From assembly GCF_006345805.1 (NCBI RefSeq), contig NW_021833047.1, forward strand, positions 22,952 to 86,951: DNA of 64,000 nt. Direction: 5' to 3'. Below the pieces are notes generated by a model. It saw only the letters and a program-made list of their open reading frames with translations, was not told where the DNA came from and ran no database searches. Positions 32,623 to 58,780 of this stretch are shown here, in pieces. The translations under genes were made by a program, and so were the position numbers. Position 1 is the stretch's first letter, and each line of letters opens with the position of its first letter. This DNA comes from Octopus sinensis (Eukaryota).

Positions 32623-32813
32623 TCAGACCAGTTTCTTTAGTAGGCACTTAGTGTTAGTATATGAAAAGGCGGTACATGTAGAAGATACCATACATAAACG
32701 TGAACAACCCAAGACCGAGCGAGCAACCATTTGGGCCTCGGTTATAAGGTTGTGATATGGATTTGGTTTGAAGGAAAAAGTTGAATAAGCCGTCAAATCA
32801 TTAATTTCTTTTT
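32623..32813 (-). CDS. Terminal PAN/apple-domain exon (KEINDLTAYSTFSF...SVLGCSRLCMVSSTCTAFSYTNTKCLLKKLV*)
   Basis: Strong phase-1 acceptor ttctttttttattgcAG at 32815-32814, a C-x3-C-x5-C-x-x-F-x-Y-x4-C pattern, and TGA at 32623. Confidence 0.7.
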
Positions 32814-33249
32814 CTGCAATAAAAAAAGAAAGAGAAATCACAAGAATATAACTATATAAATGAAATTATTTCTCTTCATTGACAATGTACAAGGCAAACA
32901 AATAGATAGGGCCTATTGATTCGATAGATCGATGTTATTAATGTTCCGTTTGGACATCTTTAGGTTAGTGTGAGTAGGGAGTGAGTTCCTGAGTGTTGCA
33001 TAATCTAGAAAGGAAGGATTAGGAATAATAATTGATGGGAGATCTGGCTGGTGAAATAGCATGTGTGACTGGAGAGTGAGAAGGGGCTTGTGGCTGGTTA
33101 TCTCGGTGGTAGAGTGGTTCTCGTATTACCAGCGAGATGCATTAAGGTATTTCCGAGCAAGTTAGTAATGAAGCGTGTTGTGCTATTTAATGACAGTTAG
33201 GATTAATATTAACCTATCTACCAGATTTTAAATGAAGATGATGTATTAA

Positions 33250-34535
33250 ACAGTTCCCGGACTAGTTCTGTAGCGCGCCAACAGATGGCAGCACACGGTT
33301 GAGTGCGCAGTAGGAGCTAGCAGTGATGGTGATGAGGCACTGGGATGAGTGATATTGCTGCGTTTACTTTGCAAGATGTGAAATTTTTGATATTGTAAGC
33401 TGCAATCTGCGATTTCGTGATGGGCAGGAGGTTGGAACAAAGAGCCAACGTGGAATTTGGCGTTAAATTTGGTACGACTTCTACAGAGACATTGATTATG
33501 CTTTGGCAAAATTACGGTAACGAGGGAATTGATTTTACGCAATGTTACGAGTGGCACGTGCTCTTCTAAAACAAAATAACATCCCTGGAAGACGAAGAGC
33601 GATCTGGAAGATTTACCACGGGCGTCACCCCAGGAGATTGGAGAAAATTCCTCAACTTGGGAATGATGATCGCCGGAGGACAATCAGCGACATTGATGAT
33701 GTTGTTGGTCTGTCGTGTGGATTCGTACAGACAATCTTAACATCTGAACTGGACATCCGGTGTGTCTCTGCCAAGTTTGTCCCTCCTACTGAACAATCAG
33801 TAGAAAGAACATTGCGTCAATGTCTGTCAAGATGTCAGTCAGCCTGCCGCTGTTGACTGATCCTTCATGTCAAGGATCATTATTGGTAATGAGAGTTGGA
33901 TCCACAAATACGACCCTGAGATGAAGCAGCAATTGTCACAATGGAAAATCCCTTCATCTCCACGACCTAAGACAGCAGGACAGAACCGCAGTTCAATCAA
34001 GAGCGTGCTGATCGTTTTTGTTTTCAACATCTGCATTATTGTGCATCAAGAATTCATCCCCCAGAGCCACACAGTGAATTGGCAGTTCTTACTACGACGT
34101 TTTGAGAAAGGACATTCGGCGAAACGACCGGTTATGCAGATCGCGAAAAACCGGATTCTTCATGGCCACAATGCACCCTGCTACCGAGTTCTCCTCACTC
34201 ATGAATTTCTCGCCAAAAACTACACGGTATCGCTTCTACATCATCCCTATTCGTCACATTTAGCCGACTTCCTGCAGACATCCATCTCTTCCCCAAGACT
34301 AAAAGGCAATCGAAAGGTCGCCATTTTAACACCTTTGTCCTTTTCCTGAACCGAATCGCAGATGGTCCTCGAGTCGCTTAAGGAAAACGACTTTCAGGTC
34401 GGATACCAAAAGTGGCAGGAACGCTGAGACCGGTCTATTTCCGCACAAGTCGACTATTCTGAAGGAGATGATGTGAAAACTTGGACAATTTATTTTTCAA
34501 TAAACATAACGGGAAGTTTTTGGTACCACTTCGTA
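33250..34535 (+). mobile_element. Degraded near-full-length mariner
   Basis: ILTSELDIRCVSAKFVP, IIIGNESWIHKYDPE, LHGHNAPC and HHPYSSHLA. Confidence 0.8.
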
Positions 34536-35299
34536 ATTGTGGATCAGTTTTACTACATCTTTTAAAAAGGCTTATTAATTATTAAATTAATGCTAATCTA
34601 TTTAACAAAGAATAAGTAGGACTAATAATGCGATGAAGAAGAAAGCGATATTTATTAATTTCTATATATTTTTTCGGCAAGAACTGGACACAGAAGATCA
34701 ATGAATAAAAGATGAACAAGAAACAGAAACAAAGAACGCAAAAAATAAACAATAAAAATTGGTCTTACTGTCAAGAATATAATAAGAGTCGAAAACTCTT
34801 ATACCACATCCCACGGAGTTAATCTTCTCCAGTGTAAGGGACTGGTTAAGGTCATTCCAAAGTTCTGAAATGGAATAAAAGTAAAAAAGACCGTCGTAGT
34901 TTTAATGTTTTCCATGATTTCTTTAATATTAATCAAGGAATTCTAATCTCTTTCATACAATCGACTTTCCTATTTATATAAGACGATTTTATATAAGAAA
35001 TCATGACTTTTTAAATATATGTTGTTTTATTTACTATCAGTTATTTCTAGTATTAACACAAGGCCTCATGTATGAAGGGAGGGAACAGACGTTTAGAAAG
35101 GTTCTACGATGTTACTGGTGTGTTACCGATATATTATTTCATGTGTAATTAGACCGTATTGGAAAAAGAAAACCGATATTCTTCTTTGAGCGTTTGATGA
35201 CTTATGTAGAGTATAAATGAATCATTTTTAACGTTGTATGCTATGTTTTAATATAGAAAAATAAACAATACAACACACAAGTCTGTCCTACACATGATA

Positions 35300-36340
35300 G
35301 CAGACGTTCGAGGTTACTCCTCAAGTTATCAACGCTTGGGCACTGAACGAGTTTGTGCAAAACACTTGTGTCCTTTGTACTCATCTCAAGCATACTTCAA
35401 TTCACAACGTTTTTATGTGGCGTGTATAGTTTATACCGAGCTAGTAGTGTCTACTAGTAGGACAACCAGGCCCAAAAATCTTTGGAAATTATCTCTGGGC
35501 TCCGGCTTGCAGGTAGAAGGGACCAGCCTGTTGACGTTTGCCGACACCCAGAGTCTTCTCGACAACGCCGTCGCTCTTTCTTTACCACAGTTCGACCGTA
35601 GAACGCCAAACTGGGGTTTCTGTATTGGTTGACTGGCAGAGGGTTGTGAGCGTCTGACTACACTCTAGATGTGTCAGAAAATCTGTCTTAGTCTACGTTT
35701 GATCCTGCTTGACTGTAACACTTCCAAAGAGACGAGCTGCGGAAAAGTGAGTCTGAGAAACGGCGACCACACCTGCTGAGTGCCAATCAAACTCTGGAGG
35801 TGTCGCAACCGCAGCGCACGACTGCCCATCGTCAGCCAGGGTATGCCCAGTTTTCCATCTAGTAGGTGTCGACAGCAAATGGATCGTATGACGAGTGAAA
35901 CGTGTGAATTCCAAAGAATGCGGAAAGACAGGTGGCAATATATGATGGAAATGGTGTAAGCATTCGCCGCCTCTGTTCCACCTTCCAAGGATAACTTCTT
36001 CTCGGCTAATTTCTGAGTAAAGTTGGTCACCCTGCTCTTTCCAGAGCTTCTCTACATGGAGATCTGGACGAAACCAGTTACCGAGTAATTTTCCCTACCC
36101 GTCCATCCAGCGCATAATGTTGTTGTTGGACTGATCGACCAACATCTCTAGGCACAGAGCTGCAGAACGAGTTTTGATGACACTGCTCGTAGTCCCTTAG
36201 AGGTTGCTGTCAGACTCTGTGACAATGCGTTTAATAAAGTTATAGTCCGAAAATTATCACGAGATTCCCGTTGTTCGGGTCACTTCCCAGCTGTGATACC
36301 ACTGTCCTACTCACAGCAATGGGAATTACCCTGTTTTGCA
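35300..36340 (-). mobile_element. Decayed L1/Tx1-like LINE fragment
   Basis: RSICCRHLLDGKLGIPWL...RALRLRHLQ resembles the post-RT region of Tx1/L1 ORF2. Confidence 0.5.
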
Positions 36341-56706: not shown

Positions 56707-56972
56707 TTATTTACCGTCTCTATACTTGGTCGGCACAGTTCTTCTTAACTGATGAAAATAGGTATTAGTTGCTCCTATTAGTATCTTCTCTGATGTGTCA
56801 TCTTCGTATAAAATGCAGCTTGGACTTATCGCTCTACTCACGAAGGATTTGCATGTAGAAGTTTCAAAACACCTCTTCGAACAGCTGGAGGCATCCACGT
56901 CAAGTGTCATCAATGTTTTACCATCTTTCAGATCACAGTGTTCTACTTTTATAAAATACTTCAGATATTCAA
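56707..56972 (-). CDS. PAN gene B exon 3: PAN/apple domain (EYLKYFIKVEHC...SCSKRCFETSTCKSF...SCILY...KYRDG[K*])
   Basis: Same acceptor and phase as gene A. The exon ends either at the phase-1 donor GTAAAT (exon end 56715) or at TAA 56707. Confidence 0.8.
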
Positions 56973-57525
56973 CTGTAACAAAGTCAGGAAAATTAAACAA
57001 CCAAAATAGGAAGATGAAAATAAAAGATTGTGAAAATAGATAATATAAAGAAATAGAATATTAAAAGTTTGAGGATCAATATTGATATTTTTACCAGGAA
57101 GAAGTGATAAAGTTGTTACTACCATAGTGTAGGTACAAAGCATCTTGGAATATATTATCTGATTAATCAAAATGACTGCAAATGAGTTCTTAATTAATTA
57201 ATTCTCATATTTAAATTACTCATATGCTATGTTCTATAATGTTTAACGGTTGTGTGTTGTAAAGTTTATACAATGTCAGTACTTTGTTATATTTAACAAA
57301 ATGCTTACAAAATTGAATTATAATCAATGGAAATTATGTTAAGAAGTGAATTTGTCATCATGCGGCTGTTTTGTATTGAACTAAAAATTATAAATTTTCT
57401 TTTCAACTAATTTACTTTGAGAAGGAAAATATTCTCTTGTATTGAACTTATAAATTAAATGTTTGTGTAGTGATTTTCATAATTTTCATAGATATAGGTC
57501 TATATATTGATATAAATCTACTCAC

Positions 57526-57561
57526 GTCCATTTCCAAATTTCAATGAGATATAGAAGAGAA
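57526..57561 (-). CDS. PAN gene B exon 2 (FLFYISLKFGNG)
   Basis: 36 nt with AG/GTGAGT boundaries; paralog of 9434-9469. Confidence 0.8.
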
Positions 57562-58749
57562 CTGCAACGAAAATTTATTTTGTAAAATATTTCATATTTC
57601 ATATTCACGTTTAACATTCATTTACAAAGAATTAAGATGACATGAATAGGAAAGAGAAGTGCTACAAGCGTAATTCGATAACAAATACAACGATGACCAC
57701 CGTTACATCACCATAAAATTATCCATTGAAATAAGGAGGGAGAGCGATAAATTGGAGAGGGATAGAAAGATAAACAAAAGAAGAGAGAGAGGAGGGATGA
57801 GAGCGAGATAAAGAGAGAGGAACAGAAATAGAAAAAGGAGAAGATGAAGAAAGAAAAGGAAAAGTTGTTTCAATCGAGATAAGAAGCATCAGTATTTCTT
57901 GGAATAGAAAATTCTAGACACTTAGAAACTTTAGTGAAAGTATTACGTATATTAAGAGCGGGATAAAGAGCGAATGTAGTGAACCAAAAAGAATGTTAAA
58001 TTAACTAGAATTACGCATGTAATGGAGAGAGAAAAACAATTATATCTGATTTTAAAATAACTGTTGTGAAGAAATGGAAGGGAGAGAAATTCCGAAATTA
58101 AAATTGATTAAAAATGATAGAAGTAAGCAGTGGGGAACGAATCTAATGTTTTGTATGTTTGGAGTTAAATCCGGACATGTTTTGGACTTATCAGGTATCC
58201 TTTTGGAAATATAGTCTAATACGTATTTAACCAGATCATAGAATATAAATTTGGTGTGAGAATTACTCACTGAATAGGCATTGATTTAAAATAAGACGAT
58301 GGCAAGTTTTGTTGCACTTCCTTCTGTTTGCGGAACACAGATTATATAACCAAATATATAATGAAAGTTGACCACATCCTTCCTGGTGATCTATTCCTTT
58401 ACAAAATGTATTTCATGATAAAATTATTTTAGCATTTTCTACCTTGCCTTATTTTTCTTATACATGTCAACTCGTGTGTTGCTTTTCAACCTTCTACACA
58501 CACACACACACACACACACACACACACACACACACACACACACACACACACACACACACACACACACACACACATATATCTCTATCTATCTGTCTATCTA
58601 TCTATCTACCTATCTATCTATCTATCTATCTATTTATCTACTATCAATACACACACACACACACACGCACACATATATAGTCGTGATGGTTAAACCCTTA
58701 AATAATTAAAAACGTAATATATTAATTATACAATAAAACGTTTACATAC

Positions 58750-58780
58750 AAATAATTTGAAGGTAATTCCTCTGCAGCAT
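58750..58780 (-). CDS. PAN gene B exon 1 (MLQRNYLQII)
   Basis: ATG at 58780, 31 nt, GTATGT donor; paralog of 11725-11755. Confidence 0.75.

Follow-up and report, generated by a model that had tools for sequence, protein, structure and literature searches.

In the PAN/apple fold the C-terminal strand comes after the last core cysteine in sequence order, and in classical apple domains a third disulfide links the N- and C-terminal cysteines. PAN-ZP proteins and PAN receptors (NompA, cuticlin-like) carry in addition a ZP domain or a transmembrane anchor. Secreted proteins built only of PAN domains are also a known kind already, an example being leech LAPP, which is described as binding collagens (PMC7191736); for TgMIC4, galactose binding is described (PMC4055764). 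Our literature searches found no account of octopus PAN/apple proteins or of cephalopod apple domains, no paper on six LOC identifiers of the family treated here, and none on circular permutation of a PAN domain.

The stretch of DNA analysed (the window) comprises 64,000 nucleotides of an Octopus sinensis contig. It contains a gene for a predicted three-PAN protein, gene B, and part of a tandem paralog, gene A, with the following features.

58750..58780, minus strand: gene B exon 1, whose 31 coding nt begin at the ATG and encode the first part of the signal peptide
57526..57561, minus strand: gene B exon 2, 36 nt in phase 1-1, which encodes the hydrophobic core together with the predicted cleavage site, after residue 22
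56715..56972, minus strand: gene B exon 3, 258 nt in phase 1-1, which encodes PAN1 with its four core Cys and the unconserved C35
43470..56714, no strand assigned: intron 3 of gene B (13.2 kb), about 40% relics of RT-encoding non-LTR retrotransposons
43239..43469, minus strand: gene B exon 4, 231 nt in phase 1-1, which encodes PAN2; this domain varies most and has the invariant C111-P112
34769..34864, minus strand: gene B exon 5, 96 nt in phase 1-1, placed by homology and encoding two short helices, C205 and an aromatic strand leading to PAN3
32623..32813, minus strand: gene B exon 6, with 191 coding nt for PAN3 and its four Cys, then TGA
32496..32501, minus strand: AATAAA, a candidate polyadenylation signal some 120 nt past the stop; this is a motif only, in AT-rich background
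11725..11755, minus strand: gene A exon 1
9434..9469, minus strand: gene A exon 2
8443..8700, minus strand: gene A exon 3 (PAN1), 77% amino acid and 88% nucleotide identity to gene B exon 3

The original prediction gave gene B five exons. All five intervals are found on the minus strand, each with AG before and GT after it and with four phase 1 introns between them, and their 747 nt do translate to 248 residues and a TGA with zero internal stops; what had been overlooked is a sixth exon, at 34864-34769. This exon is bounded by tttcag and gtaaga in phase 1-1, gives a tblastn match to two Octopus homologs (71-74% identity, E ~2e-11) and is matched by a family profile at E 9.7e-18. It is 81-84% identical to its counterparts in paralogs, with 25 of 31 residues shared with P0160 of O. 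bimaculoides. The six-exon model has a CDS of 843 nt encoding 280 residues, 16 of them Cys, with introns of 1188, 553, 13245, 8374 and 1955 nt; all 280 codons are open, the ten splice sites are canonical and every conserved Cys is retained. The product aligns with O. sinensis LOC118766713 at 79% identity with zero gaps, and exon 1 is identical to that of O. sinensis P0004 in 10/10 residues. Profiles built from homologs recover exons 3, 4 and 6 at E 1.6e-36, 2.5e-29 and 6.7e-31. When five family profiles were run over the six frames of the window, only the six exons of gene B and the three of gene A rose above background, set by the best match in the reversed window (E 0.023); such a scan detects family coding exons and is blind to UTR exons or unrelated exons. 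We therefore have high confidence in a six-exon gene B, its splicing being read from homology. A second candidate AATAAA signal past gene B starts at 32239. The window has no tRNA or Rfam matches.

Could gene B nevertheless be expressed mainly in the shorter, five-exon form, with each exon a self-contained PAN cassette spread by shuffling? The symmetric 96-nt exon 5 would leave the frame intact if skipped, 'isoform X2' in the label of LOC118766713 shows that isoforms are annotated, and PAN2 is joined straight to PAN3 in 3 of the 26 family models that we parsed (the second half of P0003, P0009 and P0015). All three of these models, however, are also truncated in PAN3, which stops at profile position 39-46 of 63, and incomplete, truncated or fused entries are common among the database models for this family. 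The exon-5 segment is present in 12/12 of the parsed proteins that have both the four PAN3 cysteines and sequence upstream. In four of five annotated paralogs the six-exon model fits better (0, 4, 0 and 0 gaps, against 32, 30, 32 and 32), the fifth, P0009, which lacks the segment, fitting the five-exon form. Skipping an exon that is intact, canonically spliced and so well conserved would moreover leave C111 unpaired, and we regard the five-exon form as an improbable main product. The related idea that every exon holds a single complete PAN domain, ready to be shuffled, does not hold, because exon 5 carries the invariant C205, which probably closes PAN2, and a strand that the paralog model places just before PAN3, so that conserved features of both PAN2 and PAN3 cross exon borders.

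A further possibility, raised with the original prediction, is that the exons beyond the 13-kb intron are part of a different gene. The intron is long and rich in transposable elements, as seen by tblastn with the window's own transposon frames and by RVT_1 and zf-RVT matches, and the closest paralog of gene B varies by domain (P0004 for PAN1, 90%; P0001 for PAN2, 77%; P0005 for PAN3, 90%). Against this, blastn and profiles find no second leader or PAN1 exon within 56715-43469, exon 3 ends in a donor site and has no stop, and paralog models join PAN1 to PAN2 and share this exon set and its order. A separate gene is thus unsupported, and we consider it highly improbable.

The encoded protein is, as had been proposed, a predicted secreted three-PAN protein, with a signal peptide of about 22 residues that we read off the sequence pattern and not from a signal-peptide predictor. 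Pfam PAN_1 (PF00024) matches exon 56972-56715 at E 3.8e-6 (27.1 bits) and exon 43469-43239 at E 6.4e-6 (26.4 bits), both above the curated cut-off of 21.4, and exon 32813-32623 just under it, at E 4.3e-4 (20.5 bits); the paralog P0005 matches in three stretches at E 4.9e-16. The ESM Atlas returned only generic PAN clusters (scores 0.89-0.94). The view that protease, kringle, ZP and transmembrane parts are missing also stands. The TGA follows PAN3 six residues past its last Cys, full-length homologs stop likewise, and no kringle or trypsin-like protease domain follows the PANs in gene B or in the full-length paralogs, whose Pfam matches are all of PAN type. There is no Pfam match to a ZP domain, and for a membrane anchor the top 19-residue hydropathy window reaches 1.05.

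Each domain has four core cysteines: C53/57/63/75 in PAN1, C138/142/148/160 in PAN2 and C254/258/264/274 in PAN3. The earlier count of five, six and four is literally right, although it includes two unconserved residues, C35, a Cys in 5/10 aligned homologs, and C174, in 3/16. An inter-domain bond between C35 and C174 is conceivable; the two show no consistent co-occurrence. PAN1 and PAN3 lack the N-/C-terminal Cys pair of the six-cysteine apple type. For PAN2, C111 and the exon-5 residue C205 are each conserved in 15/15 homologs and the core set in 13-15 of 15; because C138 and C160 are jointly missing in 2/15 rows (P0158 and P0039, largely one sequence), C111 and C205 remain as partners. A C111-C205 disulfide closing PAN2 is thus probable, and exon 5 would then be structural, supplying the cysteine that closes PAN2 as in classical apple domains.

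The fold was predicted with AlphaFold for the paralog P0005, in place of gene B itself, from an alignment of 18 sequences (pLDDT 85.7, pTM 0.74); an earlier model built on six sequences was poor (pLDDT 43.4). In the better model, domains 1 and 2 show the PAN fold, a helix on an antiparallel sheet. PAN1 superposes on the HGF N domain (Z 12.5, rmsd 2.0, 79 aligned) and PAN2 (113-185) on apple 5 of TgMIC4 (Z 8.5, rmsd 2.1, 70 aligned). Model residues 111/112-210 superpose as a single unit on AMA1 PAN domains (for example 4apm: Z 7.1, rmsd 2.4, 76 aligned), in favour of C205 closing PAN2. The exon-5 region forms helices 185-190 and 197-202 and a strand, 212-221, separated by four residues from strand 226-234. 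PAN1 closes with a long strand, 87-98, and PAN2 with 172-183, and PAN3 has nothing past strand 273-279: only six residues are left after C274, the C-terminal strand is absent, and the upstream strand 212-221 may substitute for it. Exon 5 would in this way complete the PAN3 sheet in circularly permuted order. The exon-5 strand ranks fifth of 91 windows against a profile of the PAN1 and PAN2 terminal strands. Permuted profiles brought no gain over shuffled ones in hhalign (20.8 v 20.8; 25.1 v 25.1), and rows aligning 211/213-282 as a single unit have low Z, at most 3.5. On balance we lean towards a circularly permuted PAN3, as the model suggests.

Searches turned up no database protein record for gene B itself and no protein nearly identical to it over its length. 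Its closest full-length relatives, O. sinensis LOC118766713 and LOC118761179 and O. bimaculoides LOC106868906, resemble it in length (276-282 residues), overall identity (61-79%), signal-PAN1-PAN2-linker-PAN3 order and C-terminus, but their PAN2 is merely 45-62% identical to that of gene B; they and their kin are listed in RefSeq or UniRef as uncharacterised or 'Apple domain-containing'. Only exons 1-3 of gene A lie within the window, the later ones falling outside; the final 23 residues of its exon 3 are identical to those with which O. sinensis P0008 begins, a protein that goes on through PAN2, linker and PAN3. The expanding, lineage-specific, PAN-only family to which both genes had been assigned is confirmed by sequence comparison as octopus in origin and expanded, and as partly annotated already: every one of the 18 named homologs comes from Octopus and is uncharacterised, and in each species many lie on a single chromosome.

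Divergence within this family is uneven. Mean identity between paralogs is 50% for PAN2, against 75-76% for PAN1 and PAN3, and PAN2 is the less conserved in 36/36 pairs when compared with PAN1 and in 21/21 with PAN3, the pairs not being independent. Its variation is centred at about residues 119-134, 154-161 and 169-179. We put at about even the chance that PAN2 is a specificity domain that differs between paralogs. The divergence may instead reflect relaxed constraint on PAN2, or gene conversion that homogenises the PAN1 and PAN3 exons, rather than selection for new specificities. The PAN1 tree is star-like, with 0/7 inner branches supported, the 77-86% identity of genes A and B reaches into the introns around exons 1-3, and the nearest neighbours of the gene B domains are mosaic, all of which would suit relaxation or conversion; but the cysteines and core of PAN2 are kept while loops and edge strands vary, as fits a varying binding surface, and we hold this second explanation to be possible but the weaker. 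Tree incongruence does not establish domain mosaicism, the strongly supported branches numbering 0/7 for PAN1, 1/8 for PAN2 and 0/3 for linker and PAN3.

It is also conceivable that gene B arose by a recent duplication in a birth-and-death cluster and is now redundant, and either not expressed or decaying. The best full-length database identity is only 79%, several annotated paralogs are truncated, its introns hold recent transposable element insertions, and dN/dS values of 0.5-0.6 are high. For exons 1-3 of genes A and B the ratio is 0.51 with dS ~0.2, a figure that comes from 12 synonymous and 25 non-synonymous differences, without a significance test, and includes no PAN2 codons. At that dS, however, the open reading frame, the splice sites and the conserved cysteines have all stayed intact, and decay seems unlikely to us. 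At a few positions that its relatives conserve, gene B does differ, for example at D126, which is T.

Our preferred explanation as a whole, which we favour by a modest margin, is that gene B, still intact, belongs to an Octopus family that grew by tandem duplication, and that it encodes a secreted, multivalent predicted binder, with exon 5 structural and PAN2 setting specificity. The 280-residue precursor would yield, after removal of the signal peptide, a soluble protein of about 29 kDa, probably glycosylated, with PAN1 and PAN3 as the conserved frame; it would bind, without enzymatic action, a glycan, matrix or cell-surface protein in a secretion or in the extracellular space. The more specific proposal of an octopus-specific variable lectin or adhesin repertoire, directed at microbes, prey, mates or eggs, and combined with a permuted PAN3 for which exon 5 supplies the central strand and which it joins to the cysteine that closes PAN2, is tentative and less likely than not. 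What is gained in any case is a corrected gene model and the true architecture of an octopus PAN family. If the structural reading is right, the family offers a case of the PAN fold permuted circularly in nature, and an exon can be phase 1-1 without being a freely movable module; if diversifying selection acts on PAN2, it is an unstudied octopus repertoire of small, secreted, putative binders that can easily be expressed and tested. If neither is true, this is an ordinary tandem PAN family.

Structural relatives of the P0005 model include the binders TgMIC4 and LAPP, although a shared fold shows no function. The family could be a salivary or venom component that binds prey matrix or blood proteins, as with leech LAPP or saratin, since it is secreted, PAN-only, duplicated and variable, and its model superposes on LAPP (Z 7.8, rmsd 2.4, 74 aligned) and saratin (Z 5.8). 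The main text of cephalopod venom and gland papers, however, mentions neither PAN nor apple, a weak absence, and the O. vulgaris posterior salivary gland supplement (PMC7693380) contains no family identifier or motif, though it may not list such terms; the supplement files searched from PMC9699675 and PMC9068888 hold no family matches. We judge a salivary role rather unlikely.

How, then, does gene B compare with the described PAN proteins? LAPP (1i8n) and saratin (2k13) are likewise secreted lophotrochozoan PAN proteins with no enzyme domain, but they have one PAN domain, in chains of 89 and 103 residues, where gene B has three, and a PDB profile search gave no sequence match to either. The top matches in sequence-profile searches of the PDB were instead the apicomplexan lectins SML-2 (2yil; E 0.0012) and TgMIC4 (4a5v, 2ll4; E 0.012), which share with gene B the tandem PAN/apple arrangement and the absence of a catalytic part. 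Identity is 17-20%, however, and domain number and packing differ (for SML-2, rmsd 13 over two domains). The best single-domain superpositions of the P0005 model are on plasminogen (Z 13.0) and the N domain of HGF (Z 12.5), but plasminogen and HGF, like factor XI and prekallikrein, carry protease or kringle domains that are absent from gene B, and there are three PAN domains here, not four. Against factor XI and prekallikrein entries the whole-chain TM-score is at most 0.27, with rmsd ~15, and the three domains therefore do not form the same disc. At the level of the single domain, the likely analogue of the predicted C111-C205 bond of gene B is the third, N-to-C disulfide of the factor XI and prekallikrein apple domains.

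On the sequence evidence gene B is a real gene, and its corrected structure comprises six exons. Gene A is its tandem paralog.

58780-58750, minus strand, gene B exon 1
57561-57526, minus strand, gene B exon 2
56972-56715, minus strand, gene B exon 3 (PAN1)
43469-43239, minus strand, gene B exon 4 (PAN2)
34864-34769, minus strand, gene B exon 5 (linker)
32813-32623, minus strand, gene B exon 6 (PAN3)
11755-8443, gene A exons 1-3

The five intervals of the original prediction are each preceded by AG and followed by GT, with all introns in phase 1, and total 747 nt (248 aa plus stop), as claimed. 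Pfam PAN_1 matches the three large exons at E 3.8e-6, 6.4e-6 and 4.3e-4, the last slightly below the curated cut-off. Homolog-only profiles recover them at E 1e-29 or better, and the reversed window, used as control, gives nothing below E 0.023, which shows that the matches are not due to chance. The count of five, however, does not stand. Searches by tblastn with the homologs P0002 and P0003 gave matches (71-74% identity) at 34865-34764, and 34864-34769 is a canonical 96-nt phase 1-1 exon absent from the earlier model. Its inclusion gives 843 nt and 280 aa, a product that aligns without gaps to the annotated O. sinensis paralogs LOC118766713 (79%) and LOC118761179 (61%), and removes the 30-32-residue gap that the five-exon model leaves against four of the five paralogs tested; only P0009 suits the five-exon model better. 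Among 26 parsed family proteins, which are gene predictions rather than reads and come from three species, the exon-5 segment is present in all 12 that have the four PAN3 cysteines and upstream sequence; three of the 26 skip it, and PAN3 is shortened in these too. The suggestion that the last exons form a separate gene is without support, since no further leader or PAN exon was found between exons 3 and 4. The P0002, P0003, P0009 and P0015 models leave PAN3 near the same point past its first helix, continuing into unrelated sequence.

About 32695-32670, exon 6 equivalent of this exit point

The four models may be broken paralogs, or gene predictors may have picked a cryptic donor.

An alignment of 18 proteins shows C111 and C205 in all 15 of the 15 rows that are filled at the respective position; C111 stands at the start of exon 4 and C205 in exon 5. 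The other PAN2 cysteines make up the core set, so C111 and C205 are likely partners in an apple-type closing bond that would span an intron. The cysteines originally counted as fifth in PAN1 (C35) and sixth in PAN2 (C174) are Cys in 5/10 and 3/16 rows of this alignment, respectively. Two O. bimaculoides homologs, P0158 and P0039, have a PAN2 lacking both C138 and C160, a joint loss that offers a natural test of whether these two pair in a disulfide.

The fold was predicted by AlphaFold for P0005, a paralog sharing 79% identity with gene B, with pLDDT 85.7 and pTM 0.74 from 18 sequences; with only 6 the pLDDT was 43.4. Superposition matches domain 1 of the model to HGF N (Z 12.5, rmsd 2.0 over 79 residues) and domain 2 to TgMIC4 apple 5 (Z 8.5, rmsd 2.1 over 70 residues), with residues 111-210 fitting AMA1 PAN domains as a single unit. 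PAN1 and PAN2 each have a long terminal strand, about 20 residues beyond the last core Cys; PAN3 ends six residues past its own. The model has a strand of ten residues (212-221), encoded mostly by exon 5, that precedes the first strand of PAN3 by four residues. A PAN fold carries its last strand at the centre of the sheet, antiparallel to the first, and the modelled placement would thus match the geometry of a circularly permuted PAN3. Set against that reading, in a sequence test of permutation the exon-5 strand ranked 5 of 91 windows, hhalign gave no gain over shuffled controls, and structural rows aligning 211-282 as one unit reached Z 3.5 or less. Searches of open-licence PMC and bioRxiv turned up no paper describing a permuted PAN. 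Whether or not PAN3 is permuted, exons 4-6 probably do not act as independent cassettes.

PAN2 is where the paralogs differ most. Across 12 close family sequences, with the mispredicted tails of five trimmed beforehand, mean pairwise identity is 0.76 for PAN1 (55 pairs), 0.50 for PAN2 (55 pairs), 0.67 for the linker (21 pairs) and 0.75 for PAN3 (15 pairs). With the near-duplicate P0011 left out, PAN2 falls below PAN1 in conservation in 36/36 pairs and below PAN3 in 21/21, although the pairs are not independent of one another. Within PAN2 the cysteines and the core do not change, and the variable positions are about 119-134, 154-161 and 169-179. Per-domain trees were too poorly resolved to reveal conversion or shuffling. 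Exons 1-3 of genes A and B are equal in size, with 77-86% nucleotide identity reaching into the introns and a dN/dS of 0.51 from few sites; the final 23 residues of gene A's part in the window are identical to the start of the O. sinensis homolog P0008.

An initial homolog search gave 4 proteins, all from Octopus, and a second gave 11; a profile search placed 18 of 1941 candidates in the family (10 O. sinensis, 6 O. bimaculoides and 2 O. vulgaris), annotated as uncharacterised, hypothetical or 'Apple domain-containing'. Of 161 proteins collected, 18 contain the exon-5 segment, and every one of these belongs to the family. Screening 1.84 billion representatives returned 223 matches at E 0.001 or better, and among the 150 listed most are generic multi-PAN proteins and at least eight are unnamed family members. 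All 18 named homologs are from Octopus, which fits the claim of a lineage-specific PAN-only family; restriction to octopuses is suggested by these sequences, not proven. Identity to LOC118766713 ranges from about 20% to 82%. Four O. sinensis records lie on same-size contigs (59.36 Mb), as do four from O. bimaculoides (57.42 Mb) and both from O. vulgaris (79.96 Mb), from which we infer one cluster-bearing chromosome per species. The other six O. sinensis records are on scaffolds of 54-200 kb, and some may be haplotigs.

Several repeats and transposable-element relics lie within the window.

2096-2151, (TAA)n tract
43602-43786, (TAA)n tract
46610-46701, (TAA)n tract
48839-48947, (TAA)n tract
49950-50036, (TAA)n tract
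55293-55375, (TAA)n tract
22420-23121, Mariner-type transposase relic
33864-34256, Mariner-type transposase relic
42067-42432, Mariner-type transposase relic
14359-14538, Mariner-type transposase relic

Two of the Mariner-type relics lie within gene B introns 5 and 4. The (TAA)n tracts adjoin remnants of RT elements that carry a zinc knuckle at the C-terminus. We take these to resemble elements of the R4/Dong type, which target TAA and have a restriction-like endonuclease. One non-LTR retrotransposon is present as two copies, 94% identical and in opposite orientation, at 1-905 (3' of gene A exon 3) and 43791-44693 (inside gene B intron 3), and its family is fairly recent. A broken, almost full-length APE-type LINE with endonuclease and RT lies between the genes (26877-29606), with a related endonuclease relic at 63370-63993, and a MITE-like or foldback pair of 270-bp inverted repeats, 85% identical (11946-12217 and 12419-12684), lies some 190 bp upstream of the gene A start codon. 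Within gene B intron 4, a minus-strand relic with two stops (36226-35699), another frame of which presumably resembles an L1/Tx1-type LINE, shares 72% identity with the last 176 aa of O. bimaculoides LOC128249715, a model in which PAN2 seems to be spliced into a repeat. The PAN2 of LOC128249715 is the closest to that of gene B (77%), so by sequence this gene may be the ortholog.

What might the gene B product do? Its N-terminal segment resembles a signal peptide, and no hydrophobic run is of a length to anchor it in a membrane, as would fit a secreted protein. There are three motifs for N-glycosylation, and the mature form would have a mass of about 29 kDa. Known PAN-only and apple-repeat proteins bind, and this one has no catalytic domain, so by analogy binding is most likely its role. 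Collagens are bound by LAPP (PMC7191736), and galactose-containing glycans by the TgMIC4 apples (PMC4055764). Gene B would then encode a secreted, multivalent binding protein whose specificity lies in PAN2, a proposal to which we give about an even chance. The main texts of the cephalopod venom and gland studies searched, and one supplement, offer nothing in favour of a salivary role; such silence is weak evidence.

The gene B product is a PAN/apple-superfamily protein. Membership of the plasminogen, HGF, factor XI or PAN-ZP families was rejected, and with a TM of at most 0.27 its family's domains are packed differently from the disc of factor XI. Annotation exists for close paralogs but assigns them no function, and searches of open-licence PMC and bioRxiv yielded no literature on the family. 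Secreted PAN-only proteins are an already known kind, and we take gene B to be a new architectural variant among them.
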